Shown here piece after piece: positions 2,168-30,554 of a DNA stretch of 64,000 nt (its first letter is position 1; each line of letters begins with the position of its first letter). This stretch comes from an uncultured Chloroflexia bacterium (GTDB lineage: Bacteria > Chloroflexota > Limnocylindria > Limnocylindrales > CSP1-4). The translations under genes were made by a program, and so were the position numbers. The notes below the pieces were generated by a model, which ran no database searches, was not told the DNA's origin, and saw nothing but the letters and a program-made list of their open reading frames with translations. Location: the NCBI GenBank assembly GCA_963789905.1, contig CAWBMK010000007.1, forward strand, positions 780 through 64,779. The letters are read 5' to 3'.

Positions 2168-2176
2168 GAGATACCG

Positions 2177-4290: not shown

Positions 4291-4295
4291 CTTTA

Positions 4296-7553: not shown

Positions 7554-7577
7554 TTCAGGGCTTCGCGACAGCCGGAG

Positions 7578-7598: not shown

Positions 7599-7641
7599 CA
7601 CTCGATCTGGCCGATCGGCATGAGCGCTCCTTCGATGGCGC

Positions 7642-7662
7642 CTTCCTCCGAAGGGGAGGATG
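7642..7662. promoter_or_regulatory. Palindromic box type A, CTTCCTCC-GAAGG-GGAGGATG
   Basis: 19 bp identical to the box at 13805. Confidence 0.7.
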
Positions 7663-7827
7663 TAGCCGGCCCGTGACACGGGCTACGGTGCGAACGTCCG
7701 GGTGGCCTCGCAAGCGGTCGACGTGCCTGGACGGTCGTCGCAAGCGTTTCCACGCTTCCCTTGCGCACGAGAAACGGTCCGCCGCAGAGGGACCGATGCG
7801 TCGACCGCGAGGAGTTGAGGTATCGAT

Positions 7828-8472
7828 GTGACAGACCAACAGACGACCCCCGAGATGACATCGGCCACCGACGCCGACGACAGCGTCGTCGTCACGGGCC
7901 AGGTGGCGGACGAGCAAGGTGTGCTCGCCGAGGGCGCGATCGCTGCTCAAGGGCCCCATGCGCTCATCGTCGCCCGGTTCGCGGACCCGACCTTGGCGAT
8001 GAGCACATATGACGATCTCATCGACGCCGAGGTCGCGGGGTTCCTCGAGGTCGACGGCGTCCTCGTGGTCAAAGCGGACGAGAAAGGCCAACTCCACGTC
8101 CAGAAGATGACCGACCACAGCACGCGTACGGGCCTGAAGTGGGGCATCGTCGGTGGTGTCGTCGCGGCGGTCTTCCTGCCAGCCACGATCGTGGCGGGCG
8201 CGGTCGCGCTCGGCGTCGCCGGCGCGGCAGCCGGCAAGGCGCGCAACCTCTATCACCGGGTCGAGGTCGAGCAGGAGCTCGCCGGCGTCATCACGCCGGG
8301 CACCTCCGGGATCCTCGCGCTCGTCTCTGCGATGGATGCGGACGCCGTCGCGCAGAAGATGCCCGAGGCCGAGCAGGTCAAGACGGTCCCGGTCGACGAG
8401 GAAACCGCGGGGGCGATCAAGGCGGCCGCGACCGCGGCTGCGTCGCACGACGCGCCCGCGATCCCAGTCTGA
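7828..8472 (+). CDS. DUF1269-like membrane protein
   Basis: DGVLVVKADEKGQLHV, GLKWGIVGGVVAAVF glycine-rich helices, PGTSGILAL. Confidence 0.8.
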   Translation: MTDQQTTPEMTSATDADDSVVVTGQVADEQGVLAEGAIAAQGPHALIVARFADPTLAMSTYDDLIDAEVAGFLEVDGVLVVKADEKGQLHVQKMTDHSTRTGLKWGIVGGVVAAVFLPATIVAGAVALGVAGAAAGKARNLYHRVEVEQELAGVITPGTSGILALVSAMDADAVAQKMPEAEQVKTVPVDEETAGAIKAAATAAASHDAPAIPV

Positions 8473-8550
8473 GTCCGCGGTGGGTAGGACCCGTTCGGCG
8501 TGCGACCGGCGCTGGACATCGGGGAGCAGGGTCGAAGGAGACACAGGGAC

Positions 8551-9552
8551 ATGGCAGACAAGCACGTGACCGGCCCGATCCAGGTGTTCGTGGTCGGGTT
8601 CGACAAGTTCGAGGCGACCGGCCGGATCATGGCCGAGCTGCGCCGGGCGCGGAAGCGCGGCGTGATCCGCCTCGTGGACGTCATCTTCGTCCAGAAGGAC
8701 CGGCACGGCGACATCGAGAACTCGATGCACCTGACCGACCTGTCCGAGGATGAGCGGATGCGTCTCGGCGCGATCGCCGGCGGGCTCATCGGACTTCATG
8801 CGGGTGGTGTCGAGGGCATGGCCGAAGGGGCCGAGCTAGGCGCCCTCGCCGTCGCCGAGCGCGACGCCGGCCTGTCGGTGGACCGCATGCAGGAGCTCGC
8901 CGACTCGATCCCCTCCGGCAGCGCCGCGGCGATCCTCGTCATCGAGCATCACTGGGCGGCGAGCCTCCGCGACGCGATCGTGGATGCCGGCGGTCGAACG
9001 CTCATGCAGGCGATGATCGCGCCCGACGCCCTCGCCATCGTGGGTGACGAGCTGCGCGTCAAGATGGAAGCCGAGGACGCCATCGAGGCGGCCGAGGAGA
9101 TCAAGCTGGCCGCCGCTATGGAGATCGCCCAGACACTTGTCGAGGCCGAGCTCATCGAGGACGCGGCCATCGCCGAGGCAGCCGATGTCGTGGCCACGGC
9201 GCTCGCGGTCGAGGATGCCGCTGCCGAGGACGTCATCGACACGCTGTTCGCCGCCTCGCTCATCGAGGAGGCGGCCAAGGAAGAGGCCGAGAACGTCGTC
9301 CGGATGTCGCTCGACGTCGAGGAGGCAGCGACCGAGGAGGCCGAGGAGGCCGTAGTCGCGGCCGACGAGATCGAGGCCGCTGCGGCTCTTCGCGCGGTTC
9401 GTGCGCTCATAGAGGCGGACCTCATCGAGCGGGAGGCCGCCCAGGAGGCGGTCGACGCCCTCGTCGCGGCCGACATGATCGAACAGGAAGCCGCGGACGA
9501 GGCCCTCGCGTCGGTGCTCGCCGCCGAGGAGGTCGCAGCCGGCGTGAGCTGA
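8551..9552 (+). CDS. DUF6325/DUF1269-like N-terminal domain fused to acidic Ala/Glu repeat tail
   Basis: AAGGAG RBS; GPIQVFVVGF, IRLVDVIFVQKD, IPSGSAAAILVIEHHWA; ~190-aa A/E/D-rich tail. Confidence 0.7.
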   Translation: MADKHVTGPIQVFVVGFDKFEATGRIMAELRRARKRGVIRLVDVIFVQKDRHGDIENSMHLTDLSEDERMRLGAIAGGLIGLHAGGVEGMAEGAELGALAVAERDAGLSVDRMQELADSIPSGSAAAILVIEHHWAASLRDAIVDAGGRTLMQAMIAPDALAIVGDELRVKMEAEDAIEAAEEIKLAAAMEIAQTLVEAELIEDAAIAEAADVVATALAVEDAAAEDVIDTLFAASLIEEAAKEEAENVVRMSLDVEEAATEEAEEAVVAADEIEAAAALRAVRALIEADLIEREAAQEAVDALVAADMIEQEAADEALASVLAAEEVAAGVS

Positions 9553-9610
9553 GTACCAACGCATCCGGGATCGCTGGGTCAACCAATGTCAACGAAGGGA
9601 GATTCCTCAG

Positions 9611-10234
9611 ATGAGTGATGAGACGAAGAACACGCCGGCAGCGCCGGATCAGCCGATCGATGCCGCCGTGGCCACCGTCAGTGACGACCTCGGCGTCGAA
9701 GCCGTGGCCGGGATCGCCGTCCAGGGCAACCAGGCGCTCATCGTGGCGCAGTTCGCCGACATGGACTCCGCGAAGGCGGCCTACAACGCGTTGGTCGACG
9801 CCGAGGTCAACCGGGCGCTCGACATCGACGGCGTCCTGGTTGCGAACGCGGACTACCAGGGCAAGATCCACATCCAGAAGATGACCGACCATAAGACCCG
9901 CAACGGCTTCCTGTGGGGCGCCGTCGGCGGCGCCGTCATCGGCCTGATCTTCCCGCCGACCATCCTCGCCGGCGCAGTCGGCGTCGGCATCGCGGGTGCG
10001 GCCGTCGGCAAGGCCGGCAACGTGCTCATGAAGAGCGACGTGGCCGACGAGCTCGCCGGCGTCATCACCCCGGGCACGTCGGGCATCGTGGCGCTCGTGT
10101 CCATCACAGCGGTCGACGCCGTGGAGGCGACGATCCCGGACGCCAAGGTGGTCAAGTCCGCTCCGGTCAGCGACGAGGCCGCCGCTGCAGTCAAGCAGGC
10201 TGCGAAGGCCGGAGGCGACCAGGCGGCCGGCTGA
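9611..10234 (+). CDS. DUF1269-like membrane protein
   Basis: Paralogue of 7828 (KMTDHKTRNGFLWG, VITPGTSGIVAL). Confidence 0.8.
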   Translation: MSDETKNTPAAPDQPIDAAVATVSDDLGVEAVAGIAVQGNQALIVAQFADMDSAKAAYNALVDAEVNRALDIDGVLVANADYQGKIHIQKMTDHKTRNGFLWGAVGGAVIGLIFPPTILAGAVGVGIAGAAVGKAGNVLMKSDVADELAGVITPGTSGIVALVSITAVDAVEATIPDAKVVKSAPVSDEAAAAVKQAAKAGGDQAAG

Positions 10235-10275
10235 CGTCACTCGGCGGAAAGCCCACCGGCAGCAGAGCGAGCGAT

Positions 10276-10318
10276 GGAGGCGGCCCGGGATCGTATCGAA
10301 CGACTCGGGGCCGCCTCC
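10276..10318. terminator. GC-rich inverted repeat between convergent genes
   Basis: GGAGGCGGCCC...GGGCCGCCTCC. Confidence 0.45.
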
Positions 10319-10489
10319 GAGCCATGAGCGCGGCGTTCCCCTAAGCGCCCGCCCGAAGGTCACTCCGGGCGACGTGCAGCTGATGACTCAGGCCGACGCG
10401 GTCAATAAGGCGGTCGCCGGCGTGTTCACCGCGGACGAGCAGGCCAAGCTCCAGCAGCTCTTGCCGACGCTCAAGCGACAGCGCGTCGA

Positions 10490-10990
10490 TTAGATGGCTG
10501 GGCAAGTAGTCGCGAGCGCGGACTCGACAGCTGAAGCTGCCGTCTTGATCTGCTCGATCGCCGCCTTCACCGCGACAAGCTTTGCGCCGAGGCTCGGCTG
10601 ATCGCCGAGTCCGGTCAGCGTGGTCTGGAGTGCCTGGACGGAGCTCAGCAGATCGCCGACCGGCTGGCCGACAAGCTCGTGCCCCGACACGGCGAGGGCC
10701 TGAGCGGCCGACTGTACGTCGGTGAGCGCCGCCGTCACGCCGCTCACACCGACGGTGGCGAGCGTGATATCGGTGAGCGCGGTCACGGAGGCGCGGAATC
10801 GCGCCGCGTCCGCGCACATCGCGGCCGCGCCCGACGCGGTCGGAGCTGCCGAAACGATCGGAGCTGCCGACGTCGGCGCCGTGGCCGGGGCTGTCGGCGT
10901 GCCCGGTGTCGGCGACGAGGAAGCCGCGCAAGCGGCGACGGCGAGCGTCAAGAAGAGCACGGGGGCGAGGAGGCGAAAGTCTCTGGGCAT
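10490..10990 (-). CDS. Putative lipoprotein with Pro/Thr/Ala linker and helical domain
   Basis: Signal peptide with lipobox LAVAAC; PTPGTPTAPATAPT linker. Confidence 0.7.
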   Translation of the reverse strand: MPRDFRLLAPVLFLTLAVAACAASSSPTPGTPTAPATAPTSAAPIVSAAPTASGAAAMCADAARFRASVTALTDITLATVGVSGVTAALTDVQSAAQALAVSGHELVGQPVGDLLSSVQALQTTLTGLGDQPSLGAKLVAVKAAIEQIKTAASAVESALATTCPAI

Positions 10991-11290
10991 CGGTATTCCC
11001 TTTGGTCGGCGTGGCTTCGATGGACGAGCGTCGGTCACGAGACTGCGCGTTGGTCAGGGATCGGTGGCACGTTCGGGACGTGACGGCCGCTCGCGTGCGG
11101 CGGTCGCCTCCACGCGGTCGACCGCCGTGCCGATAACTATCTGCGGACGGCCGAGATCGGAACCCCGATCCGGGCGCGATGGACGTGACGTGAGCCAGCC
11201 GACCGCGTTTGCGACGAAGGGCCCGGTCACGTCGACATCACCGCTGGACCATCTGGACGCTGTCACGCTAGGCCGCGAACCTTCGAGCCG

Positions 11291-11311
11291 CATCCTCCCT
11301 GTCGGAGGAAG
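11291..11311. promoter_or_regulatory. Palindromic box type A, CATCCTCC-CTGTC-GGAGGAAG
   Basis: Between divergent lipoprotein and MalT-like regulator genes. Confidence 0.7.
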
Positions 11312-11456
11312 GAAGCTTGCTACGGGCGGGCAACGGCGCATGGAGACGCGGTGATCAGCGACGCGGAGCCGATGGACCGCCGTCTGGTCCTTCCGTTAGG
11401 ATGCCACCTTGACCAACGGGCTCGGTCTCTGAACCGCGCCGCCAGCCGGTAGACGC

Positions 11457-13915
11457 ATGCCCCCTTCCACTTCCCCTGTCGAGATCGAACCGATCGAGCT
11501 TGGAAGCCTCGCAAGCGGCGACAGCGCCGGCGGCCTGCTCGATCCTCTCCTCGAGGCGAGGCTCGTCATGCCGCGCCGGCCTGTCGGGACATTGCGCCGG
11601 ACGAGGCTGTTGCGCCAGATCCGGTCAACCCGACGACCTGTCATCTCGATGGTCGCGCCACCCGGCTACGGCAAGTCGAGCCTCCTCGTCCAGTGGGCGA
11701 CGGAAGACTCCGCGCCGGTCGCCTGGCTGACGGCCGACGAAAGTGATAGCGACCCGGTCGCGTTCCTGACCGATCTTGCGACGGCGGTCGACCGCTGCGT
11801 ACCGCTCGGTGCGGAGCTCTTCAGGGCGATCGCGGCGGTCACGGTGTCGCACCGGACCGTGGTCGGGCGATTGCTGGCAGCGATGTCCCGACCCCCGGAG
11901 CGGGTCCGGATCGCCATCGACGACGTGCACCGGATCACCTCACGGGCGAGCCTCGACATCCTTGCGGAGCTCGTCGAACACCTGCCCGAGGGGTCGCAGG
12001 TGGCCATCGCGGGACGCGCCCGGATGCGCCTCCCGTTCGCCCGCTGGCGCGCCGAGGGTTCACTGCTCGAGATCGGTCCCACGGAGCTGGCGATGGACGA
12101 GCGTGAGGCCGTCGGACTGGGACGCGAACTCGGGCTGCGGCTGCCGGCCGAAACCGCCACGCGCCTGACGCGAGAGACCGAAGGGTGGCCGGCTCTGCTG
12201 GCGCTCGCGATCCTGGGAGCCCGGACGTCTCGGGAGGGATCTCGATAGGAGCGACGCCGGCACTGACCACCTCATCGACGACTATCTGCGATCCGAGGTG
12301 CTCGAGCGCCGATCCACGGCCGAGATCACGTTCATGACCCGCACGTCGATCCTCGACCAGCTGCCCGCGCCGCTGTGCGATGTCGTGGCGGATCGACAAG
12401 GGTCGACCGATGTCCTGCGGCGACCTTGCAGGCTCGACTCTGCTGATGGACGACTACGGCGGGTCATACCGCTACCACACGCTCCTGCGCGACTTCCTCC
12501 AGCGGGAACTCGCGATCCGCGAGCCTGATCGGGTGACGGCCCTGCACGGGCGAGCCGCCGCGTGGTACCGGGCGAACCACGCCATCGAGCGTGCCGTCGA
12601 TCACGCCTTCGCGGCAGGGGACTCCGATCTCGTCGCCACGCTGGTCGGCAACGGCTTCGTCCAATTCCACTGGTCCGGCCACCGTGCGACGATCCGAGCA
12701 TGGGCCCGGCGTTTGGGTTTGGACGTTCTAAAGGCACACCCATGGCTGGCCGTGCTGGCAGCCTGGGAGGAGATCGCCGCGGGCGATGTCGCCGCTGCGA
12801 TGCGCTTCGCGGATGTAGCCGAGCGCGGAGCGTTCGAGGGAAGTCCGCCCGATGGCACGGCCTCATTCGAGTCAGGGAGGGCCATGCTCCGGGCCGGCAC
12901 GATCCGCCAGGGAGCCGAGGACGCGCTGGCGAACGCCACTCGAGCAGTCGAACTCGAAGGGGACCACGGCATGTGGCGCGGCTTCGCGCTATGGCAGATG
13001 GCCTTCGCCCGCCTCACGATCGGCGATGCGGCCGGCGCGGACGCGGCCTTGGCCGCCGCGGCCGTCGCGGCCCGATCATCGGGTGACGCCGCGATCTGGT
13101 ACTGCGTGCTCGGACACCGCGCTCTCGTGGCCGCCGAACAGGGGGCCTGGGATGCCGCGGCTGCCTCTATCGCGGAGAGCGATGCGATCACCCCGGCTCC
13201 GCAGATAGACGGGTATCTGTCGAGCGTTCCGTCTCGGGCGGTCCGCATCAAGCTGATGATCCATGGCGGCGACATCGCCGGTGCACGTCGCGAGCTCGCT
13301 CGAGCGACCAGCCTGCGACCACTCCTGACTGCCGCTGCGCCGGCTGGAGCGGTCCAGCTCCTTCTCGCGTTCGCCCGCGCCCATGTCGCGATCGACGACC
13401 CGGCCGGCGCACGCGCCCTCGTTGCCCAGGCGAACGACGTGATCCGCGATCGGCCCGATCTGGGCGTCCTCCCTGCCGAGGTGGACGCCTTCCAGGGGCT
13501 CCTGCACGCACGGGCGCCCGTGCGCGGCGGGGGCGCCACGAGCCTCTCGGTCGCCGAGCTCCGCGTCCTGTCATTCCTGCCGTATTACCTCTCGTTCAAG
13601 GAGATCGGGCAGCGCCTCGGCGTCAAGGAGACGACGATCAAGTCGCAAGCGCTTGCGATCTACCAGAAGCTGGGCGCGGCGACCCGCAGCGACGCTGTCG
13701 ACCTGGCCGTCGACGCCGGACTCCTCGAGCGCTTCTGGCCGGCCGAGGCGACCCCGCCGCGAACGAAGATCACCTTCCAGGGGCTGAATGCACGGGACCG
13801 AGCGTCTCCTCCGAAGGGGAGGATGCTCCCGCTGTCAGGAAGGGCCGAAATGGACGTGCGCTCGACCCTGGCAGCGGGCGTGAGGCCATGGCATTCAGTC
13901 CTCCCGTGCCGGTGA
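11457..13915 (+). CDS. MalT-like STAND ATPase/TPR/LuxR regulator 1, frameshifts ~12250 and ~12420; true stop probably near 13.8 kb
   Basis: Walker A APPGYGKS, IAIDDVHRI, TEGWPALL, YRYHTLLRDFL, C-terminal LSVAELRVLSFLPYYLSFKEIGQRLGVKETTIKSQ. Confidence 0.85.
13805..13825. promoter_or_regulatory. Palindromic box type A, TCTCCTCC-GAAGG-GGAGGATG
   Basis: Upstream of the MFS gene; near-identical to 7642. Confidence 0.65.
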
Positions 13916-14050
13916 GCTCCGATAGGGACCACATCGATGACTGAGGGTGAGTCTTCGAGCACAGGAGGGGATCTCGGGCCGGATGCGATCTTCCTCAATG
14001 AAGTCGGGGAGGTCGTGACGACTGCCCGTAGCCGGCGCGAGGTGTAATCG

Positions 14051-15685
14051 ATGAATCGAAAGTCAGCCCTGATCGCACTCGCAGGCGCGCAGTTCGTGAT
14101 GGTCCTCGACCAGACGGTCATGGGGGTCTCGATCAGCCAGCTGGTGGCCGACTTCGACACGACCGTCACGACGATCCAGGCGATCATCACGCTGTACTGC
14201 CTTGTCATGGCGATGCTGATGCTCGCGGGCGGCAAGATCGGCGACATCATCGGGCGCCGTCGCGCCTTCAAGATCGGCCTCGTCATCTACGGCTGCGGCT
14301 CCGCCATGACGGCGCTCGCCCCGACGGTGGCGATCCTCACCCTCGGCTGGTCGATCCTCGAGGGCATCGGCGCCTCCCTCGTGCTGCCCGCGATGGTCGC
14401 CCTGATCGCCGGCAACTTCGAGGGCAAGGACCGCAAGGTCGCCTACGCAGTCATCGGGGGCGTCGCCGGCGCCGGGATCGCGGTCGGTCCGATCCTCGGG
14501 GGCTGGGCGACCACGGTGCTCAGCTGGCGGGTCGTCTTCGCTGGCGAGGTCGTCCTCGTGATCGGGATCTTCGCCATGACCCGGTTCGTCGCGGACGCCC
14601 TCCGGAGCGGCCCGAAGCCCCGGCTCGACATCGTCGGTGCTGTCCTGTCGGCCACCGGTCTCGGGCTGATCGTCCTGGGGACCCTCCAATCCAGTGTCTG
14701 GGGCCTGATCCAGCCGAAGGACGCGCCGGTCGAGCCCTTCGGCCTTGCTCCGACCCTCTTCGTGATCGCCGCCGGCGGGGTCCTGTTGTGGGCGTTCGTG
14801 GGCTGGCAGCGGCACCGCGAGGCGATCGGGAGCGACCCGCTGGTCCACCTCGACCTGCTCAAGATCCTCCCGCTCCGATCGGGCCTCGTCGGCCTCTTCA
14901 CGCAGAACCTTCTGCTGATGGGCGTCTTCTTCACCATCCCCCTCTATCTCCAGCTCGTCCTCGGCCTCGACGCCCTCCAGACGGGCCTCAAGATGCTGCC
15001 GGTCTCGATCGCGATGTTCGCTGCGTCCGCCGCTGGGTCGCGACTTTCGACCCGCTACTCCGTGCGTTCGATCACGAGGACTGGGCTCATCCTCTCCGGC
15101 ATCGCGTGCGTCATGCTGCTGGCGACAATCAAGCCCGATCTCGCCGATCTCGCCTTCGCTGCGTCGATGGGCGTGCTGGGTGCCGGGATGGGGCTGATGG
15201 CGTCGCAGCTCGGCCTCGTGGTCCAGTCGTCGGTCGACGCCTCGGGTCGCGGCGAGGCCGGCGGGCTGCAGTTCACCGGGCAGCAGCTGGGCTCGTCTCT
15301 CGGGGTCGCCCTCATCGGCGCGATCGTCCTTGCCGGGCTGACGACCACCTTCGTCTCGAGCATCCAGGCGGACTCCCGCATCAGCGAGGAGGTCGCGGCA
15401 CAGGTCGGGACCGAGGTGAGCTCCGGGATCGACTTCGTCTCGTCTGCGGCCGTCGAGGCGGCCGCTCAGAAGGCCGGGCTCGACGCGGCCACCACGGCGG
15501 CGATCGTCGACGACTACGAGCAGGCCCAGCTCCGGTCGCTGAAGGCCGGCCTTCTGGCGGCGGCGCTCCTGGCCCTCGTCTCGCTCGCGTTCACCGGCGG
15601 CCTGCCGGGGAAAGTGCCGATAAGCACGGCAGCGCCTGGCGAAGACGCGGCCGCCCCCGACACGGTCGCGCCGGCAGCGGCATAG
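14051..15685 (+). CDS. MFS transporter, DHA2/EmrB-like 14-TMS
   Basis: AQFVMVLDQT, GGKIGDIIGRRR, GIAVGPILGGW. Confidence 0.9.
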   Translation: MNRKSALIALAGAQFVMVLDQTVMGVSISQLVADFDTTVTTIQAIITLYCLVMAMLMLAGGKIGDIIGRRRAFKIGLVIYGCGSAMTALAPTVAILTLGWSILEGIGASLVLPAMVALIAGNFEGKDRKVAYAVIGGVAGAGIAVGPILGGWATTVLSWRVVFAGEVVLVIGIFAMTRFVADALRSGPKPRLDIVGAVLSATGLGLIVLGTLQSSVWGLIQPKDAPVEPFGLAPTLFVIAAGGVLLWAFVGWQRHREAIGSDPLVHLDLLKILPLRSGLVGLFTQNLLLMGVFFTIPLYLQLVLGLDALQTGLKMLPVSIAMFAASAAGSRLSTRYSVRSITRTGLILSGIACVMLLATIKPDLADLAFAASMGVLGAGMGLMASQLGLVVQSSVDASGRGEAGGLQFTGQQLGSSLGVALIGAIVLAGLTTTFVSSIQADSRISEEVAAQVGTEVSSGIDFVSSAAVEAAAQKAGLDAATTAAIVDDYEQAQLRSLKAGLLAAALLALVSLAFTGGLPGKVPISTAAPGEDAAAPDTVAPAAA

Positions 15686-15763: not shown

Positions 15764-15795
15764 GGATGATCGGTCTTCATCCGTCAAGGAGGATG
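15764..15795. promoter_or_regulatory. Overlapping boxes GGATGA-N7-TCATCC (15764-15782) and CTTCATCC-N5-GGAGGATG (15775-15795)
   Basis: ~100 bp upstream of a DUF1269-like gene. Confidence 0.6.
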
Positions 15796-15894
15796 CGCGG
15801 GGCGCCGTCGACGAGCCTACTCTGGCGCCACCCCGAGCCGGACCTGCCACGCAGAGGGCGATGAGGTCTACCCGTCGGTCGAAGGGAGTTGACG

Positions 15895-21361: not shown

Positions 21362-21755
21362 TCCCCCTCGGCCAGTGTGACCTCACGGGTGCCCCGAGGG
21401 CCACAACGACCGGCGACTGAAGCACGATCTGCTGCGTGGGACCGGCGGGTTCAGTCCCGTTTACCAGACCGCTACTCGTCCGCTTGGGGGCTGGTCTTCA
21501 GGTTCGGGCAGGCGCGGGGCGAGCGCGAGAAGGAGCAGCGGCAGATCGAGCCGGTTCGAAAGCTGCATCCGCCTCGCCCGTCCGCGGGGCAATCGGGAAG
21601 TTCTGGGTGAAGACGTCTTCGGGGTCATACTGAGCCTTCGCCCGTGGAGCCGAGACAGGGTCGCGCCGGGAAACGCGTCCGCGAGACGGTCGGGCCGCAA
21701 GTCGGTCTCCAAGGCTCAGGCAGAGCCCGGCGACGCTAGGGCGCAGGTCGTCACA

Positions 21756-22235
21756 GTGGCGCAGGAAGGCGCGCTCATCCGCTGGAAGGAGGACCCATCC
21801 GTGTTCGCGAACAGCCAGCACCATCCGGTCGTCGTCCGACTGAACGACGAACGCTTTGCCGACTTTCAGTTGCGTCTCGCCGATCGGATCACTGCGTTCG
21901 CCGGATCGATGAACTTCGTCTACCTCCACGCCTTGGTGTTCGTCACCTGGATGATCGCTGTCGAGCAGCGCCCGTGGCCGACGCTCACCCTTGCCGTTTC
22001 CGTCGAGGCGATCTTCCTGTCGACGTTCGTCATGATCGGGCAGAACCGCCAGGGAATGTTTCAGCAGGCGAAGGCCGATCACGATTTCCTCGAGGAAGAG
22101 CAGGAACTCAAACTGAACACCGAGCTGACTCGCTCGATCCACGACCTCACGCTGGAGCTTCGCCAGCGGTTCGTGACTGGGCAAACCGGTCCTCAACCAG
22201 AAACAACGATTCCAGACGGACCGAAACCCGCTTGA
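21756..22235 (+). CDS. DUF1003 family membrane protein
   Basis: LADRITAFAGSMNFVYLH, LTLAVSVEAIFLSTFVMIGQNRQ. Confidence 0.85.
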   Translation: MAQEGALIRWKEDPSVFANSQHHPVVVRLNDERFADFQLRLADRITAFAGSMNFVYLHALVFVTWMIAVEQRPWPTLTLAVSVEAIFLSTFVMIGQNRQGMFQQAKADHDFLEEEQELKLNTELTRSIHDLTLELRQRFVTGQTGPQPETTIPDGPKPA

Positions 22236-22468
22236 TGGTGTACGACCAGGGCCGCTGGAGGACAATGTCGTCGTGGGGCGACGTGCCGCCGAGTCTGGTG
22301 CGCGGCGTCCCCGGGGCCGACGGCACGGTCGGTGGCCGTCGCTCCCGCACCGCTGGTGCGACAGCGACAACCCGCACGAGGGGAGGTGATGCCGATCGGG
22401 CAGACCAGGATCCGGCTCGACCCGGCAGGGCCCGAGCGAGGAGCAGCAAAGGATGAAAGGACGTTCCC

Positions 22469-22900
22469 GTGGATTTTGACAAGCAACTCGCCGAACTCCA
22501 GGTCCACGTCGCCGAAGCCCAGGCCGCCGCCCGGGCGGCGGTGACGGAGTCGCACGACCAGATCAAGGAGCGACTCGATCAGGCCCAGGGCGACATGAAC
22601 AAGACTGTCAAGGCCGCCAAGGCCGAGGCCGCCCAGGGCAGCGACGATGCCAAGGCTCGTTGGGGCCAGATGAAGGCGGACGCCGCGGCCAAGGCGGCCG
22701 AGGCGAAGCGGACGATCGATCGACGCGGCGATGAGTTCGACGCGGATATCGCCGAGTCGGACGCCGCGATGGCCGAGGACGATGCCGCTTCCGCGATCGA
22801 CTTCGCGGAATGGGCGGTCGACAACGCTCGCATCGCTGTCCTCGATGCGATCGACGCACGCATCTATGCGCGCCAGAAGGAAGTGTCCATCCGACGCTGA
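22469..22900 (+). CDS. Ala-rich coiled-coil hypothetical protein
   Basis: GC3-consistent ORF with GTG start; DIAESDAAMAEDDAASAIDFAEWAVDNA. Confidence 0.65.
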   Translation: MDFDKQLAELQVHVAEAQAAARAAVTESHDQIKERLDQAQGDMNKTVKAAKAEAAQGSDDAKARWGQMKADAAAKAAEAKRTIDRRGDEFDADIAESDAAMAEDDAASAIDFAEWAVDNARIAVLDAIDARIYARQKEVSIRR

Positions 22901-22997
22901 CCCCGCGTCAGCGCAGCGCCCAGGCAGCGCAGGCTGACCGCGCAGCCGTGCCCGCCGGCCGCCCATGACCGAGCGGTGTTGGCCGAGACCAAGGGCG

Positions 22998-23725
22998 TCA
23001 ACGAGATGTGAACGCGGACGAACCGGAGCGGCGGCCGGCCCCTAGGGCCCGGCCGCCGACCGGTTTTGCCGCCATTGCCACCGCGCTCCTGTCCTGTCCA
23101 CCCGGCCGCCCAGCGCAGGCAACCCTCGTGGACAACCGCGGTCCAGGCGGGTCAGTGCGCTGCCGCGCGCTGAAGAGCTTGGGCAGCGCCGCGCCGAGCT
23201 CATGGAGCCGATACGCGAGGCCGAGGCTCGAGACCCCGAACACGACCGACCAGATCCCTACCAGCCACACGAGCGAGATCAGTCCCTCGCCCGGGAAGGC
23301 GATGAGCAGCGCGCCGAACACGATCGACGCCACGCCGCCGAGCGCCATCCAGAACTCGCCATCGAGCTCGCGCCGGAGGGCGATGGCCGCGATGACCTGG
23401 AACGTGCCCGTCGCGATCGCCCAGAAGGCCACGAGGTAGAGCAGCGACAGGGCCGTCAGGCCCGGCCATGCGAAGGTGACGACGCCGGCGACGATGCCGA
23501 GGACGCCAATGATCCCCACGGCCCAGGCGTGACGCCGCGCGACCGGTCGCCGCGAACGAGCGCGACGAGCAGCGCGACGCCGTCGACGAGGACGTAGGCG
23601 CCGAACAGGAAGACGAGCACCGTGAGCGTCGTCTCCGGCCAGATGAATGCGAGGATGCCGAACACGAGCGCGGCGATGCCCCGGATCGCGAACACCCACC
23701 AGTCGCGGGTCACCAGACCAAGCAT
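22998..23725 (-). CDS. HdeD/DUF308 family membrane protein, frameshift ~23545; real stop may be ~23152
   Basis: WWVFAIRGIAALVFGILAFIWP, FGAYVLVDG, FWAIATGTFQ, LLIAFPGEG. Confidence 0.85.
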
Positions 23726-23763
23726 TGGAACCTTCTCCTTTCGATTGAAACCTGAAATCTGGA

Positions 23764-23822
23764 CGAAGCGTCCGATCCGACAGGATGAGCGGTCGTCACC
23801 CGATCCGGCCGATTCGGCCAGC
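23764..23822. promoter_or_regulatory. 59-bp upstream element type B containing GGATGA-N7-TCACCC
   Basis: 55/59 identical to 30257-30315; same offset from a minus-strand start. Confidence 0.75.
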
Positions 23823-23952
23823 TGGTCCCGCAGGCCAGCCGCCGCCGACTCGCGTCAGCTCGGGTGGCGCGTGGCTCCGCGCCGTCCGCAAATGGAAAGC
23901 GGGGCCACCGGAGGCTCCACGCACCCGGTGGCCCCGCCACGCTCGCCCCTGG

Positions 23953-24777
23953 TCAGGGCACGAGCGCCTCGCGCGTGGCCTCGACCGACTCCTTCGCGAG
24001 CCGGCGGGCCTCCTCGAGCTTCGCCTTGCGCGCCTCGTGCGACGCCTTCAGCTCCTCCATGCGGGCGTCGATCTGCTGCCGCTGGCTCTCACGCGCCTTG
24101 GCCTGCTGCTCGCGCAGCGTGGCGAGCCGCGCCTCGAACTCGGCCTTCTGCTGGGCGAGCGTCTTGTCGATGCGATCCACCAGGGCCTCCAGCTTGCTGC
24201 CGCTGCGCGTCGATCGCCTTCTCCACGTTCGCCTTCGCCTCGGCCGAGGTCTCCCGAAGCTCGGCGCGGAGCTGCTCGAGCTCCAGCCGCGCGGACTCGG
24301 TCTCGCGGATCAGCTCTGCGTCGATGACCTCGCCAGGGAGACGACGGAACGTCGTCCCGCCCAACGCTCCGAGGCGAATGTCGATCGGCGTCACCCACAT
24401 CTCGTCGATGTCCGCGACGACGGCGGCCTTGCCCGGGGTCAGTGAGGCCGAGACCTCGTCGACGAAGTCCATGCTCACGCCGGCCTTGAACATGTCGTAC
24501 ATGAGCCCGCCGAAGCCGCCGACGTACGCGCCCACCGCGACGCCCACCGGGCCTCCGAGCAGCCCGACGAGGCCGCCGGTGACCATGCCAACGAGCGTGC
24601 CGATCGGTCCGCGTCCGCCGCCTGGCGGACCGACACGGTCCCCGAGGCGTCCTTGGCGATCACGGTCGACGCGTACAGGGTGATGTCACCGTCCCGGTGC
24701 AGGTCCTTGAGGGCGGTCAGCCCCTCGAATGCCGTTCGCTCAGAGTCGAACACCGAAACCAGGATCTTGTTTCCCAC
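23953..24777 (-). CDS. DUF1269 protein with C-terminal coiled coil, frameshifts ~24620 and ~24200
   Basis: AAGGAG RBS, GTG start; ILVSVFDSERTAFEGLTALKDLH, GLVGLLGGPVG, LTPGKAAVVADIDE. Confidence 0.8.
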
Positions 24778-24842
24778 TTCTCGTGGCTCCTTTCCATAGT
24801 CGCGATGGTTCGCGACGATCAGGTGGAGCCTCCCGCCCGCCC

Positions 24843-24875
24843 GGATGAGCGTGCGTCGTCCGATCCGACCAATTC
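24843..24875. promoter_or_regulatory. Degenerate type B element GGATGA-N7-TCGTCC-GATCCG
   Basis: GGATG 66 bp upstream of the DUF1269 start, similar to the 58 and 62 bp offsets of the other copies. Confidence 0.55.
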
Positions 24876-24931
24876 CAACGCTCGGCTGAGCCGCGGCGCT
24901 CCACGGGAGATCGCGGCTCGCGGCGTGACCG

Positions 24932-25150
24932 TCAGCGTCTCGGGCGACGGACCTCGAGGAGCTCGAGCCCGAGCGCCTCGATCTGTGCCAGGACCCCATG
25001 CAGCGCCGCCTGGTCGGGCAGCGCGCCCGCGAGAACGGTGTCGCTGCGATCCGTGCGCGACCGGAGCCCGGGGAAGGCGGTGAGCAGCCTGTCGCTCAGG
25101 ACCCCGCGGACCCGGATCACGTACTGCGTCGGCCCAAGGTGTTCGTCCAC
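24932..25150 (-). CDS. Small conserved hypothetical protein (72 aa) downstream of the MalT-like regulator
   Basis: YVIRVRGVLSDRLLTAFPGL..TVLAGALPDQAALHGVLAQIEALGLELLEV. Confidence 0.7.
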   Translation of the reverse strand: MDEHLGPTQYVIRVRGVLSDRLLTAFPGLRSRTDRSDTVLAGALPDQAALHGVLAQIEALGLELLEVRRPRR

Positions 25151-25238
25151 GGGCACAGCGTCGGCGCCGGCGGGATGAGCGCACATCCACCGGATCGTGT
25201 GAGAGCGACCACCGGGGCGCCCGCCGTGAGCGGTCGCC

Positions 25239-27903
25239 CTAGCGACCCGATCGCGCCGACGGTCCGAGCAGCCCCAGCTCGCGCGCGCGGTCCACCGCCT
25301 CGGTGCGCCGATGCGCGTCCAGCTTCTCGTAGATGTGGCGCATGTGGGTCTTGACGGTGCTCGTCGAGACGTAGAGCTGGCCGGCGATCTCGCCCGCGGA
25401 CAGGTTGCTCGGCAGGAAGCGGAGCACTCGGAGCTCGCTCTCACTGAGCGGCTCGGGCGGCGTCGCGGGCTCGCGGCGACGTGGCTGGGAGCGACGACCC
25501 GCCGAGGACGCTGAGGAGGTCGGCCAGCAGGGCGGCGTGCGCCGTGCGGTGCCGCGGATGCCGCTCGAGGAGGTCCCGTGCCGGCACCACGACGAACGGG
25601 AAGACGAGCGAGTCGGGTTCGGCGATGTCGAGGCCGCGCTCGATATCGCGCTCGGCCGTCACGCGGTCGCCGAGCTGGTCGCGCGCGACCGCATCGCAGC
25701 ATCAGCGCCTGGATCACGGTCCCGGCGCGGACGACCGGTGCCGTCCCGTCGAGCACCGGCGCGAGTGCTTCGATGGCCGCCCCGTGGTCGCCCTCGGCGA
25801 GTCGAAGCGCGGCGAGGGCCGTCCGCGCCTCACCGAACTCGTGGTCCCGGTCGGTCAGGCTGGCGACCGTGGCCCGTGCGCCGGTCACGTCGCCCATCCG
25901 CAGCTGCGTCTGCGCGATCGACACCCTGGCCGGGCCGGTCAGCGCGTGCGAGGTGGCCAGCACGTCCTGGAGCCGCTCGGCGGCCCGGAACTCGCCGAGT
26001 GCCTCCCCGAACCGGCCCTCGCCGGCATGCAGCTCGCCGCGCACGAAGTGCACGAGCAGGGCCGTGGCGGGGTCGAGCTCCGCCCGGATCGAGTGCTCGG
26101 CTCGGTCGAGCCAGCGGCGTCCCTCCTCGAACCGGCCCTGCGCCGCGTCGGCCGAGGCCATCGTCGCCAATGCGGTGCAGGCGATCGGGTCGGTCGCCCA
26201 GCCGTGCGCCTCGGCGATCGCGATCGCCTCGCAGGCATCGTTGCCGTGCCTGCGCGAGCGAGCGTCGGGCGGCGCCAAGCCCGAGGTGCGAGAGACAGCC
26301 GATCTGGACGTAGGGCCGGTCGATCAGCCGCGCGAGCGCCAGGCCCTGCTCCAGGTGTCGCTCGGCGTCGTCCAGCCGGAACGACCAGAGCTCGACGATG
26401 CCGAGGTTCATCAACGCGACCGCCCTCGCGTCGTTGCTCAGCGTCAGCTCGGTCACCGAGTCCGCCTCGACGGGTTCGAGCAGCGGACCCACCTCGCGGA
26501 GCGCCGACTCGAGATCACCGCGCCGGCGGGCGAGCTCCAGCCGGACGACCGCGAGCATGACCGCGAACTGATGCTGCCGTTCGGCGACGACCTCCGAAGC
26601 ATGTCGCTCGGCCAGCGCGATGTATGCGGCCGCCGTCTCGAGGGAGTGCTGCGTCAGCTCGACGTAGGCGAGGAGCGCGGCCAGCTCGGGATGCGACAGC
26701 GCATCGGCGGGGAAGGCCGCGAGCAGGGCGCCGATGGTCGCGACCTGACCGTCGAGCGAGAGGCTGAGACCATGGTCGGCGAGCAGACGCCCCGCGTGCT
26801 TCCAGTCGCCGGCGGCCTGGGCGTGACGGATCGCGTCGACGGCGTGCCCATGCTCGGCGAGCCAGTCGGCGGCGACCCGGTGCAGGTCCCCGATGGCATC
26901 GGGTTCGCTGCGCCGAAGCTCGAGGAGCAGGAGATCCGCGAACAGCGGGTGGTAGCGGAACCACGACCGCTCAGGGTCGACCGAAACGACGAACGCGTTC
27001 GAGTCCTCCAGCTCGAGGAGCATCCGCTCCGAGCCGCTCGCTCCGGTGAGGCGGTCGGCGAGCGGGCCGCAGACCCGCTCCAGGATCGAGGTGCGGAGCA
27101 GGAGCTGCCTGACCTCTTCGGGCTGGCGCTCGAGGACCTCGGCGAGCAGGTAGTCCGCCACCGTCCGCTCGCTGCCGGCGAACTCGGCGACGAACCGCTC
27201 GGGGTCCGGGTGACCGGCGAGCGACATCGTGGCGAGCCGCAGGCCCGCGGCCCACCCCTCGGTCCGTGCCAGGAGCATGGCGGCGGCCTCGGCGGACAGC
27301 TCGACCCCGGAGGCATCGAGCAGTTGCCGCGCCTCCTCGGCCGACAGCCGGAGGTCGACGGCACGGAGCTCGGTCAGCTCGCCAGCCAGGCGCAGGCGAT
27401 GGAGTCCCAGGGAGGGGTCATGGCGGGTGGCCAGGACCACGTACAGCAACCGTGGCCGCCGCGCGAGCAGGAGCTCCAACTGCGCCTGCGCATCCGGCGA
27501 GACCAGCTCATGCAGATCGTCGATCACGAGCACGACGGGCTCATCGAGCGCCTCGAGCTCCGAGATGAGGCGCCGCACCAACCCTTCGCCGTCGAACTCC
27601 GGCGTCGGCGCGAGCTTCTGCGACGAGCCCATCCCTGCCGACCGCGGAGCGCAGCCGCTCGACGACCGACAGCCAGAAGCGCTGGGCGTCGCGTTCGTGG
27701 CGCTCCACCAGCACCCAGGCCGTTCGTGCGCGGAGGCCCGCCTCATCGATCCACGAGCGAAGCAGCACCGTCTTCCCGCTGCCGGGCGGCGCCGAGACGA
27801 GCGTTACTCCAGCGGAGACTCCGGCAGACAGGCGCGCGTACAGAGCTCCTCGTGCCACGACGCCAGGGGCGCGGACGGCGACCGTCTCCTCGGGACCGCC
27901 CAT
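25239..27903 (-). CDS. MalT-like STAND ATPase/TPR/LuxR regulator 2, about four frameshifts
   Basis: APPGSGKT, LVIDDLHEL, RTEGWAAGLRLA, WFRYHPLFADLL, LSESELRVLRFLPSNLSAGEIAGQLYVSTSTVKTH. Confidence 0.85.
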
Positions 27904-27977
27904 GCCGTCATGGTTGCACGCCGGCATGACCGTCTGAGGCCGCGTCGGACGTCGCCGTCCGCGTCCAGCGCGCTCCA

Positions 27978-29099
27978 TCAGCTCGAGGACGGCATCGGGG
28001 CCATGTCATTGCCCCCGAGCAGCTCCCCCGAGTGGCCTCGCCGCATCACGATGAGGAGCACCCACCCGATGGGGATCGGGGCGAACCATTGGGCGATCCG
28101 GAACAGCGACACGGCGGCGGTGAGCTGGTCGGTCATCCCCGACCCTGCCACGCTCGACAAGATGCCGATGTAGGCGACCTCGGAGACGCCGACGGCTCCC
28201 GGCGTGATTGGCACGAGCGACACGATCCCGACGACCGCCATCGCGGCCAGCACAGCCGACGGCGGGAGGACATCCGGCCCGACGCCGACGCACCAGAGGG
28301 CGACCTCGAGAACGACGAACCAGGCAAGCTTGCCGACCACCGCCGCGGCGAATCCGAGCAGGCCATGCAGCGTGAGCATCGCCTTCAAGCGCTCGCGCAG
28401 GTCCAGCATGCCCTCGACGATGCCCGTTGGCGGCGTCTTCCGGAACAGCCTCCAGATGCGCTGGGCCATCGAGTCGAGCCAGCCGCCGAGCCTCCGCGCG
28501 AGGCTCTCTGACCGCACGACGGAGACCAGCAAGACCGCGGCTGCGGCCAGCACGATGAGGCCGATAAGGGCGAGCAGGAGCGCCTGCCACTGGATCGGGG
28601 GACCGTCGACAAGCAGACCGACGGTGGCGATCACCGGCAGGGCAAAGGGGGAGAGCGTCTCGAACAGGCTCGCCAGGACGATCCCGGCGCTCGCGACGTC
28701 GGCGGGGATCGACCACTGGCGGTACAGAACGAACCGCGTGGCAACCTCGGTCGGCCCGGGCACGGTGCTGACGACCGCGCGCGCGGCCAGGTCCGATGCG
28801 ACGGCATGCGGCCAGGAGAGCCCGGGGACGAGGACACGGTAGGGACCAGAGCTGGCGACATAGGCGACGATGCTGGCGGCGCCGAGAAGCGCGAACTGCC
28901 ACGGGGTCAGCGCTGCGAGCGCGGCGCGAACGGCGTCGTAGTCGACCAGCCGGGGCAGCATGATCCCGAACACGAACACGAAGACACCGACGAGCACGAG
29001 CGCACGACCCACGATCGCTCGACGAGTCAGCGTCGGCTGGGCCGGTGGCGCCACCGGCGGGCTCGCGATCGCGCCCGCGGATGCTGCGTCCGGCGTCAC
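27978..29099 (-). CDS. Lysylphosphatidylglycerol synthase TM region (UPF0104/MprF flippase-like) protein
   Basis: GTGA overlap with AI-2E stop; LVPITPGAVGVSE, FRIAQWFAPIPIG. Confidence 0.8.
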   Translation of the reverse strand: MTPDAASAGAIASPPVAPPAQPTLTRRAIVGRALVLVGVFVFVFGIMLPRLVDYDAVRAALAALTPWQFALLGAASIVAYVASSGPYRVLVPGLSWPHAVASDLAARAVVSTVPGPTEVATRFVLYRQWSIPADVASAGIVLASLFETLSPFALPVIATVGLLVDGPPIQWQALLLALIGLIVLAAAAVLLVSVVRSESLARRLGGWLDSMAQRIWRLFRKTPPTGIVEGMLDLRERLKAMLTLHGLLGFAAAVVGKLAWFVVLEVALWCVGVGPDVLPPSAVLAAMAVVGIVSLVPITPGAVGVSEVAYIGILSSVAGSGMTDQLTAAVSLFRIAQWFAPIPIGWVLLIVMRRGHSGELLGGNDMAPMPSSS

Positions 29100-30214
29100 G
29101 CGATGGTCCCAGGGTGCGGCTCGACGTTGTTGCGGAACAGGCTCGCAATGCCACGCGAGGACGGGAAGGCCTCGAGGAGCATGACCAGCCCCACGGTCAG
29201 CGGGACCGCGAGGAGCGCGCCGGCCGGGCCGAGGATCCAGGCCCACACGATGACTGCGACGAAAACGACCAGCGGGCTCAGGTTGAGCTCGCTCCCCATG
29301 ACCACCGGCTGGAGGAATTGGTCCTGGGCGAAGTTGATGAGCGCGTAGCCGAGGACGACCATCGCCGCGGCCGTCGGCCCGCTGTCGAGGTATGCCAGCA
29401 CCGTCGGCGGGATGACGGCGATGACGGAGCCGATGTTCGGGACGAAGCTGGCGGCGAACACGAGCATCGCCCACAGGACGGGGAATGACACGCCGAGCAC
29501 GAGGAGGAGGCCGAACGAGAGCACCGCGGCGAACAGCCCGAGCTTGGCGCGCACAACGAGGTAGCGCCGCAGGTCGGTGCCGAACCGCTCCATGCCGAGC
29601 AGGACCGCAGGCTGCTCGCCGAACGCTGCGGTCGCCCTGTCTCGGAAGGACGCCCCGCCGGCGAGCGCGTAGATCATGGTGAAGGCGAGGACGAACAGCG
29701 CGCCGCCGGCCTCGGACACGGACGATACGACCGGCCTGACGAATGCGAAGACCTGCTCCGGCGAGATGATCGCGCTGATGGCTCCGGGATCGACGCCGAT
29801 CGGGAGCTGCGCGATGAGATCGCGCAGTGCCGCAAGTGCCGCGTTCAGGCGGCTTTCGTACCTGGGGATCTGGACGACGAGCTCGCCCACCGAGAGCGCG
29901 GCGATGATGGCCGCAAGGACGACGACGGCGAGAACGACCACGATCGCCCCCGCCAGGGCGACGGCGTGGCGGACGCCACGCCGCTCGAGCGTGCCGACCA
30001 TCGGCCAAGCGGTGAGGGCGATGAAGAGCCCGAACAGCACCGGGACGACGAGCGAAGCCATCTCGCGAAGGGCGAGCACCGCGACGAGGACGAGCACGAA
30101 CCCGGCCATCGCCGTGAGCGGGCCGGCATGCTGGCTCAGCCTGTCCGCGCCGGACACGTCGCGGCGATGCCAAACGGCGCCGCCGCTCGCAGGTTCCTCG
30201 TTGCCATCGGGCAT
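29096..30214 (-). CDS. AI-2E (PerM/UPF0118) family transporter
   Basis: FVPNIGSVIAVIPP, FLQPVVMGSELNLSPLVVF, GALLAVPLT. Confidence 0.9.
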   Translation of the reverse strand: MPDGNEEPASGGAVWHRRDVSGADRLSQHAGPLTAMAGFVLVLVAVLALREMASLVVPVLFGLFIALTAWPMVGTLERRGVRHAVALAGAIVVVLAVVVLAAIIAALSVGELVVQIPRYESRLNAALAALRDLIAQLPIGVDPGAISAIISPEQVFAFVRPVVSSVSEAGGALFVLAFTMIYALAGGASFRDRATAAFGEQPAVLLGMERFGTDLRRYLVVRAKLGLFAAVLSFGLLLVLGVSFPVLWAMLVFAASFVPNIGSVIAVIPPTVLAYLDSGPTAAAMVVLGYALINFAQDQFLQPVVMGSELNLSPLVVFVAVIVWAWILGPAGALLAVPLTVGLVMLLEAFPSSRGIASLFRNNVEPHPGTIA

Positions 30215-30256
30215 CTTCGACCTCCCTGATCTCGGTCTGCTCAGCCGGGCCGTGGG

Positions 30257-30315
30257 CGAAGCGTCCGATCCGCCGGGATGAGCGGTCGTCCCACGATCCG
30301 GCCGATTCGGCCAGC
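30257..30315. promoter_or_regulatory. 59-bp upstream element type B
   Basis: 55/59 identical to 23764-23822. Confidence 0.75.
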
Positions 30316-30554
30316 CCGGTCGGACGTGGCCGACCATAGCGACTTAGTTCTCGCAGGCGCAGGATCCGGTGCCCCAACGCACCGCAGATCGTCCTTCCGG
30401 CATCGTAGCGCTGGTACGATGGGCGACGTCACGCGCTCTTCATCGAACCGTCAGCGTCCCGGGTGAGTGGCGGATCGGCGCGGTGTTGTGACGCCGCGGG
30501 CGCCATGATCGCACCTACGACATGGGTGCCCACGACGTCCGGCATAGTGGTGGC

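Follow-up and report, generated by a model that had tools for sequence, protein, structure and literature searches.

The 64,000-nt stretch of DNA analyzed here (contig CAWBMK010000007.1 of an uncultured Chloroflexia bacterium; hereafter, the window) carries two MalT-like regulator genes, and around the second of them, regulator 2, a short element recurs upstream of neighboring genes. The question raised by this locus is what the element does. The original prediction described it as a second class of operator, a 59-bp element containing the pair GGATGA-N7-TCAYCC and distinct from the type-A boxes TCCTCC-N5-GGAGGA associated with regulator 1. The reading that we favor, and consider probable, is that this type-B element is a compact activator-dependent promoter module in the regulon of regulator 2. 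The 59-bp element is real, but it appears to be part of a whole promoter of ~63 bp that extends from upstream boxes through a −10 hexamer to approximately the transcription start site (TSS; ~+1).

Recurrence and conservation of the type-B element

The coordinates and counts reported for the first copies hold. The segments 23764–23822 and 30257–30315 are identical at 55 of 59 positions, and in a repeat search the pair grew to 63 nt (23760–23822 and 30253–30315; 92% identity) and was joined by a diverged third copy, the degenerate one noticed earlier, at 24820–24882 (63% identity). A fourth member lies at 25202–25157, between the stop codon of regulator 2 and a small open reading frame (ORF). 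The GGATGA..CATCC noticed at ~25173 is present there as GGATGAGCGCACATCC and forms part of this promoter, which we assign to subclass B2. All four members lie on the minus strand and follow a single grammar (Table 1). The distance from GGATG to the start codon, originally given as 58–66 bp for the HdeD, DUF1269, and AI-2E genes, was measured as 58 nt (ATG 23725), 66 nt (GTG 24777), and 62 nt (ATG 30214), respectively.

This recurrence is beyond chance. The core CGGATCG-N3-GACG-N4-CTCATCC had three exact matches in the window and none in 200 shuffles, and the pattern CTCATCC-N10-[GCA]AnnnT was found at exactly four sites in the 64 kb, all within the regulator-2 cluster, against a shuffle mean of 0.13. 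Occurrences of GGATGAGCG at 6446, 8748, 44163, 54910, and 21780 (minus strand) lack the remaining type-B grammar and were classified as nonmembers.

Table 1. Genes of the regulator-2 cluster, type-B promoters and their parts, and type-A sites. Positions are window coordinates; those of the general type-B parts (~−53 to −7) are relative to the predicted TSS.
Feature	Position	Strand	Details
AI-2E transporter gene	29096–30214	−	ATG 30214; Pfam
LPG_synthase_TM-like gene	27978 to ~29090	−	adjoins regulator 2
MalT-like STAND/LuxR regulator 2	~25239–27950	−	at least four one-base frameshifts; recognition helix STSTVKTHMRHIYEKL
Small conserved ORF, ~72 aa	24932–25150	−	GTG 25150
DUF1269-like gene, coiled-coil tail	23953–24777	−	GTG 24777; two frameshifts
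DUF308/HdeD-like membrane protein gene	~23000–23725	−	ATG 23725; one frameshift
Type-B module, AI-2E/LPG_synthase_TM-like/regulator 2 string	30253–30315	−	TCGGCC 30305–30300, GGATC 30299–30295, GTGGGA 30294–30289, TCATCC 30281–30276, −10 GACGCT 30265–30260; predicted TSS ~30253
Fourth type-B promoter (subclass B2), small ORF	25150–25202	−	TCACAC 25202–25197, GATCC 25196–25192, GGTGGA 25191–25186, TGTGCGC, TCATCC 25178–25173, N10, −10 GACGCT 25162–25157
Type-B module, DUF1269-like gene	24820–24882	−	TTGGTC 24872–24867, GGATC 24866–24862, GGACGA 24861–24856, TCATCC 24848–24843, −10 GAGGCT 24832–24827; predicted TSS ~24820
Type-B module, DUF308/HdeD-like gene	23760–23822	−	TCGGCC 23812–23807, GGATC 23806–23802, GGGTGA 23801–23796, N7, TCATCC 23788–23783, N10, −10 GACGCT 23772–23767; predicted TSS ~23760
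Distal half (degenerate)	~−53 to −48		TCGGyC or TCAyAC
Spacer	~−47 to −43		GGATC / GATCC
Proximal half GGnnGA	~−42 to −37		
N7	~−36 to −30		unconserved; usual place of a −35 hexamer
Invariant TCATCC	~−29 to −24		
−10 GAnnnT	~−12 to −7		
Type-A boxes	7580, 7644, 11293, 13807		TCCTCC-N5-GGAGGA; hybrid at 15777
Hybrid site, DUF1269-like gene with ATG 15895	15764–15823	+	GGATGA 15764–15769, N7, TCATCC 15777–15782, N5, GGAGGA 15788–15793, 24 nt, TACTCT 15818–15823

We scanned 185,579 species genomes (596 Gb) for exact matches to the core CGGATCG-N3-GACG-N4-CTCATCC, a pattern of 18 fixed bases, and obtained 70 loci. Of these, 32 were true loci (39 matches in ~30 assemblies), found in metagenome-assembled genomes (MAGs) of Chloroflexia/Limnocylindrales and in a few Actinomycetota (Acidimicrobiales, Solirubrobacterales, and an Arachnia MAG). 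Every true match lay 54–75 nt upstream of the start of a DUF1269-like (MGNKILVSVFD...), DUF308 (MLGLVTRDWW...), or DUF1003 gene, and in most of the 32 a MalT homologue was encoded inside the 8-kb locus. The other 38 loci had no related genes and fell in coding DNA of unrelated taxa; we consider them chance matches, as this is the number expected for an 18-base pattern in 596 Gb.

As the scan pattern forces 18 positions, we also assembled an unbiased set of 80 metagenome loci picked by DUF1269 protein similarity alone. Among orthologues of at least 55% identity, a perfect CTCATCC was present 61–69 nt before the start codon in 21 of 23 distinct upstream regions; the consensus was cggaATcgg.CGGATCGGAcGACGcccgCTCATCCGg, with the core CGGATCGGAyGACG-N4-CTCATCC. 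Among DUF1269 homologues of at most 50% identity, from low-GC and other phyla, the element was absent and the upstream regions were unrelated. By this difference, the type-B element is specific to one clade and has evolved along with the regulator.

Among the hundreds of close regulator-2 homologues that are annotated as LuxR/MalT-type, we chose six and compared their contigs (L001–L006), treating L005 and L006 separately. In L001–L004, with regulators 78–94% identical, the genes are arranged in the order LPG-synthase-like, (DUF1003), MalT, small ORF, DUF1269, DUF308, and AI-2E, and the type-B element is found before DUF1269, DUF308, DUF1003, or the regulator, with the B2 variant before the small ORF. 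A second class of boxes thus clusters around regulator 2, as originally predicted, at fixed distances from gene starts, and it travels with regulator-2 orthologues in ~30 other genomes. A genome-wide REP-like repeat (repetitive extragenic palindrome) unrelated to gene starts had been named as the outcome that would overturn the prediction. What we found instead is one to three exact matches per genome, never more (one in a closed 2.9-Mb chromosome), at the starts of the same gene families, while the four copies of the window are all in the regulator-2 cluster. Conservation of the element ahead of this set of membrane and stress genes extends to dozens of related bacteria from soil.

The two remaining contigs are different. 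L006 (regulator 69% identical; 1600–12900) is more rearranged, with type-B/B2 sites before FtsH, BON-domain, DUF308, and other genes, and also contains ABC1 kinase, PLD, aquaporin, and OTCase genes; judged by these sites and the extra genes, its regulon is probably larger and differently composed. L005 (regulator 75% identical; 12600–14600) is degraded, with truncated or fused versions of the small ORF, DUF1269, and AI-2E, and the box reads CAATCATCC. This reflects either real decay or misassembly, and the contig is uninformative for the comparison.

Promoter grammar and transcription start

In gene orientation, the type-B grammar is TCnnyC-N5-GGnnGA-N7-TCATCC-N10-GAnnnT, with the fuller consensus GAA-TCGGyC-GGATC-GGAyGA-CGnnnGC-TCATCC-N10-GAnnnT; the orthologous DUF308 promoters in more than 15 genomes have a layout identical to that of the 23760–23822 module. 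The divergent geometry proposed for the element is real and conserved, but GGATGA-N7-TCAYCC as written is exact only in the copy at 23783. The partner half is degenerate in the window (GGGTGA, GGACGA, and GTGGGA), and the perfect GGATGA-N7-TCATCC is found in several of the related genomes. At the −35 position of type-B promoters we found no sigma-70-like hexamer; the position is flanked by MalT-type half-sites.

More distant relatives fill in the grammar. L006 has the sites TCATAC-N5-GGATGA-N7-TCATCC and TCATCC-N5-GAATGA-N7-TCATCC, L096 has TCATCC-N5-GGTCGA-N7-TCATCC, and several genomes have a perfect GGATGA-N7-TCATCC. Seen in this light, type B is a palindrome like that of type A, or of the MalT regulon of Actinoplanes discussed below, retained at its canonical position with a weakened distal half and supplemented by an invariant half-site in the −35/−10 spacer. 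The N7 inverted repeat is the best-conserved part of a larger array.

The hexamer GAnnnT, 10 nt past TCATCC, is the likely −10 element. The pattern nAnnnT stands at exactly this distance in 86 of 110 distinct site readings, the rest being mostly reverse-strand readings of palindromic sites. An invariant A2 and T6 with free middle bases is the signature of the −10 element in sigma-70-family promoters. The same position is indicated by the small ORF, whose ATG or GTG follows the hexamer by 6–7 nt without a Shine–Dalgarno sequence at ~15 distinct orthologous sites or genomes (6 nt before GTG 25150 in the window). Its mRNA thus appears to be leaderless and to originate from a type-B promoter of its own. 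The GGnnGA half ends 23 nt before the hexamer and ~36 nt before the predicted TSS; the former distance agrees with the spacing of 22–24 nt that separates GGAGGA from TAnnnT/GAAAT in the window's type-A promoters, and the latter with the 34.4 ± 1 nt between box end and mapped TSS in Actinoplanes (PMC7567727). Finally, the 63-nt segment shared by the two closest copies stops just past the hexamer, at ~+1, and on this ground we take it to be a complete promoter.

Evidence from RNA is consistent with this start. It comes from metatranscriptome contigs of relatives and supports the TSS without mapping it, as contig ends may reflect strain variation. In one soil metatranscriptome (X20), the depth at DUF1269 was ~50 over the coding region, 13–31 over the predicted 5′ untranslated region, and 2.3–2.6 from 24817 upstream. 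The depth thus falls from ~50 to 2.6 between 24780 and 24817, RNA contigs end at 24808 and 24816, and the boundary at 24816/24817 is within ~4 nt of the predicted TSS (~24820). Similar drops at DUF1269 were observed in three more metatranscriptomes (from 90 to 12, 419 to 3, and 38 to 10). At DUF308 the RNA gives no reading of the TSS, since in relatives transcripts running on from the strongly expressed DUF1269 extend across the element. In soil and ice metatranscriptomes (X20, X25, X27, and X31), DUF1269 and DUF308 homologues were strongly covered and the regulator and the small ORF barely so. Given this strong representation, these membrane proteins of unassigned function are actively expressed in nature.

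Two other placements of the signals were considered. A −10 at GATCGT or CAGATT, with TCATCC then serving as −35, is not conserved across gene classes and conflicts with the leaderless layout of the small ORF, and RNA reaches 24816; we retain it as a minority alternative. Reading GGAsGCT as a third MalT half-site at N9 was rejected, as the A2/T6 invariance and the fixed 6–7 nt to the starts favor a −10 hexamer.

Several structures and sites adjoin these promoters. A perfect hairpin, GTCGCGA-ACCA-TCGCGAC, lies ~4 nt past the predicted DUF1269 TSS (24799–24816, minus strand). Its arms are kept in more than 20 orthologous leaders and its loop varies in sequence and in length (2–5 nt), so that it looks like a 5′-terminal stabilizing stem-loop or a protein-binding site. 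On the 3′ side of DUF1269 (23880–23952, minus strand) lies a terminator-like hairpin, GCGGGGCCACCGG...CCGGTGGCCCCGC followed by TTTCCATTT, across which the RNA depth decreases ~10- to 20-fold in one soil metatranscriptome. In two further loci (L085:4348 and L023:1392, reverse), a B2-like site TCACAC-N5-GGCTGA/GGTCGA-N7-TCATCC-N10-GACGCT is followed after 6 nt by ATGAACCACGAG; the gene is a candidate for another leaderless member of the regulon, outside the set of genes in the window's cluster.

Regulator 2 and the competing explanations

Regulator 2 is a genuine MalT homologue encoded beside the sites. Precomputed Pfam domains of its homologues comprise WHD_MalT, TPR_MalT, GerE, and AAA_16, and its orthologue P0007 aligned to Escherichia coli MalT (8BOB) with E = 6e-42. 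The type-B core matches the MalT-type GGA(T/G)GA or its complement, with TCATCC invariant in 21 of 23 unbiased promoters and a partner of GGAyGA or GGTGGA. The recognition helix reads STVKTHMRHIYEKL throughout the regulator-2 clade, against TTIKSQALAIYQKL in regulator 1. In 342 kb around regulator-2 orthologues, type-B sites were present and we found neither type-A boxes (TCCTCC-N5-GGAGGA) nor a close regulator-1 orthologue; the 17-bp convergent palindrome TCATCC-N5-GGATGA, with both halves conserved, was absent from these 342 kb as well as from the window. On these grounds, regulator 2 is the presumed binder of the type-B boxes; the support for paralogue specificity, with type B served by regulator 2 and type A by regulator 1, is correlative.

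The proposal that the two regulators recognize sites of distinct geometry is only partly borne out. The invariant TCATCC, 7 nt downstream, is indeed an addition, but type B retains a degenerate palindrome of the type-A or Actinoplanes kind, TCGGyC-N5-GGAyGA, with the GGnnGA half 22–24 nt before the −10 as in type A. The perfect GGATGA-N7-TCATCC noticed at 15764, overlapping a type-A box, is present at 15764–15782, and its TCATCC is shared with a hybrid palindrome at 15777–15793. The promoter of the 15895 gene, for which possible cross-talk between the regulators was proposed, is in type-A register, and the N7 pair lies ~23 bp further upstream of the likely −10 than in type B; at this distance, the site is not simply an extra type-B site.

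The mechanism that we infer starts from what was observed here, namely the conservation, position, and gene association of the element, the MalT homologue next to it, and the rough 5′ boundary of the RNA, and adds to these the identity of the binding protein, activation, and the exact TSS. Regulator 2, a STAND ATPase with a LuxR-type helix–turn–helix (HTH) domain, would be switched on by some signal, multimerize on the type-B boxes, and recruit RNA polymerase, in the way that MalT acts in E. coli and Actinoplanes. Transcription would start ~7 nt past GAnnnT, and the four promoters would drive AI-2E with the LPG-synthase-like gene and probably regulator 2 itself, the small leaderless ORF, DUF1269, and DUF308. 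Activation by regulator 2 is the most economical reading, as the MalT-activated regulon of Actinoplanes agrees with that of the window in its gene families, its box core, and its register.

Some observations weigh against it. The spacer GGATC is better conserved than the distal half-site, for which a simple half-site grammar does not account, and the first base of the proposed −10 is G rather than T. Two RNA contigs end at 24808, which fits GATCGT as the −10 and a TSS 35 nt after TCATCC, and the contig ends of relatives, from which the TSS was inferred, could also be produced by strain variation. Moreover, the inverted repeat is centered at ~−33 and its invariant half-site falls between −35 and −10. 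Such an arrangement is unusual among class-II-type activators, whereas it would be natural for a repressor.

The last point leads to the strongest of the competing explanations, that GGnnGA-N7-TCATCC is a repressor operator where regulator 2 or another LuxR-type protein blocks RNA polymerase and induction occurs by release. The inverted pair (~−42 to −24) covers the −35 position and the spacer, the classical place for a repressor, and type-A promoters have nothing equivalent to the spacer TCATCC. We nevertheless consider repression improbable. STAND/MalT-type regulators are known as activators, and type-B promoters have no recognizable −35 hexamer, which is typical of activator dependence. In situ, expression of DUF1269 and DUF308 is high and that of the regulator low, and in Actinoplanes MalT activates the homologous regulon, which agrees in gene families, box core, and register (PMC7567727).

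Less probable still is a promoter for a dedicated alternative or extracytoplasmic function (ECF) sigma factor, with its −35 and −10 elements within GGAAT ... CGGATCGGAyGACG ... CTCATCC. Such a factor would explain the fixed distance to the start codons and the GGAAT-like block upstream in subclass B1, but GAAT is only moderately conserved and is missing in subclass B2, and no conserved CGTC-type −10 was found 16–17 nt after the GGAAT block. The ECF-type form GGAAT-N16-CGnC was rejected for the same reasons: its −10 position is not conserved and B2 lacks GAAT. In addition, the 14-nt contiguous block and the hexamers match the MalT box cores GGA(T/G)GA, the leaderless small ORF places the −10 at GAnnnT, on the downstream side of every proposed sigma block, and no sigma or anti-sigma gene is conserved in the compared loci.

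The 55/59 identity of two copies is unusually high for independent operator sites and has a historical cause. In relatives, AI-2E is located 3′ of DUF308, behind a terminator-like hairpin and without an element of its own; in the window, it has been relocated 5′ of the LPG-synthase-like gene and its native leader GCTGAGCAGACCGAGATCAGGGAGG (GCTGAGC...GGAGG) is joined to the copied module. The identity extends to nonfunctional spacer positions, since it stems from a recent duplication, in which the relocated AI-2E operon received a 63-bp copy of the DUF308 promoter, and not from operator constraint alone. The third copy, at 63% identity, is the orthologous DUF1269 promoter and long separate. With one local duplication explaining the high identity, a REP-like or MITE-like (miniature inverted-repeat transposable element) dispersed repeat or a cis-regulatory RNA leader, located near these genes by coincidence, is hardly credible despite a small hairpin GGCCGAATCGGCC in the B1 copies: in ~30 genomes the few copies all stand before the same gene families, Rfam gave no match at E ≤ 1 in 21400–30500, fold z-scores were −1.3, +0.2, and −0.5, RNA coverage stops downstream of the DUF1269 element, and the hairpin is not conserved in the third copy. 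The negative Rfam search and the folding also rule out an RNA leader or riboswitch.

The gene cluster and known MalT systems

All genes of the regulator-2 cluster in the window are on the minus strand, and Pfam bore out the identities of the DUF308/HdeD-like, DUF1269, and AI-2E genes. The small ORF matched no Pfam family; it is kept in most of the related loci, directly 3′ of the regulator. Since the AI-2E and LPG-synthase-like genes abut regulator 2, the regulator is probably cotranscribed from the 30.3-kb module. This arrangement, together with the type-B module preceding DUF1003-MalT or MalT in relatives, makes autoregulation likely. The frameshifts in DUF308, DUF1269, and regulator 2 look like consensus errors of unpolished long reads rather than decay or pseudogenes, because short-read contigs of relatives differ by 1-nt indels at the exact places of the frame breaks (23545, 24198, and 24611).

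DUF1003 is located on the opposite (plus) strand in the window, with a GTG at ~21801. All that its upstream region (21772–21810) contains, 21 nt 5′ of the start, is CGCTCATCC with a GACCCA remnant, in contrast to the full type-B module that stands 55 nt upstream in relatives. The difference points to a rearrangement junction or a promoter deletion.

The grammar of boxes, −10, and TSS provides a portable annotation rule for a regulon that is common in uncultured soil Chloroflexota (Limnocylindria-like MAGs) and found in some Actinomycetota. The regulon contains a MalT-like STAND regulator, DUF1269, DUF308/HdeD, DUF1003, AI-2E, the LPG-synthase-like gene, and the small leaderless ORF, and among these DUF1269 and DUF308 are well-expressed genes of these organisms in soil and ice. 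The two box classes beside two paralogues also form a natural system for studying one-base discrimination by MalT-type HTH domains.

Type B belongs, as a variant, to the MalT-box promoters, a known class, and the evidence does not amount to a new mechanism. It is conceivable, though we regard it as doubtful, that the mode of activation is distinct: two HTH domains would clamp GGnnGA (−42 to −37) and TCATCC (−29 to −24) around the missing −35, replacing rather than extending the contacts of sigma region 4, and the two paralogues would be orthogonal through one box base (T versus G), which regulator 2 would read with the helix KTHxRH and regulator 1 with KSQALA.

Three systems allow comparison. 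The MalT box of E. coli and Klebsiella is 5′-GGGGA(T/G)GAGG-3′ (as quoted in PMC7567727). The core GGA(T/G)GA is common to both, and on the plus strand the window sites read (C/G)GGATGAGCG. The box nearest the promoter is predicted to overlap −35 in the window as well, and by the 8BOB alignment the regulator belongs to the same NOD-WHD fold family. In E. coli, however, the boxes are asymmetric, form direct repeats upstream of −35, and control maltodextrin genes, whereas in the window they are inverted pairs, one member lies downstream of −35, and the regulon consists of membrane and stress proteins.

The type-A boxes of the window share the island and the register, with a GGAnGA half 22–24 nt before the −10, and each class stands beside a MalT-like paralogue. 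They differ in having a core G (GGAGGA) where type B has T (GGATGA/TCATCC), and in being perfect 17-bp palindromes without a downstream half-site.

The closest known system is the regulon "MRLGR" of Actinoplanes sp. SE50/110, controlled by MalT (ACSP50_3915) through the box 5′-TCATCC-N5-GGATGA-3′ (Droste et al. 2020, PMC7567727). It includes three DUF1269 genes, two MalT-like regulators, AI-2E, DUF308, MFS transporters, and diacylglycerol kinase; in the mutant with malT deleted, every one of these shows a significant decrease (PMC7567727, supplementary Table S3). Both systems have a MalT-type STAND/LuxR regulator, two paralogues in the island, the core GGATGA/TCATCC, a GGnnGA half that, in the window by prediction, overlaps −35 and ends ~35 nt before the TSS, and many promoters in one rearrangement-prone island where DUF1269, AI-2E, and DUF308 genes are clustered with the regulator. 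Type B differs in its degenerate distal half (TCGGyC or TCAyAC), in the invariant extra TCATCC 7 nt downstream, between −35 and −10, that creates the divergent GGnnGA-N7-TCATCC, and in its −10, GAnnnT; its hosts are uncultured Chloroflexota and a few Actinomycetota. Type B extends the MRLGR type of regulon to uncultured Chloroflexota and ties genes of unassigned function to an experimentally studied system; by this tie, MRLGR itself is an example of an island of stress and membrane genes that spans phyla and has been shuffled horizontally.

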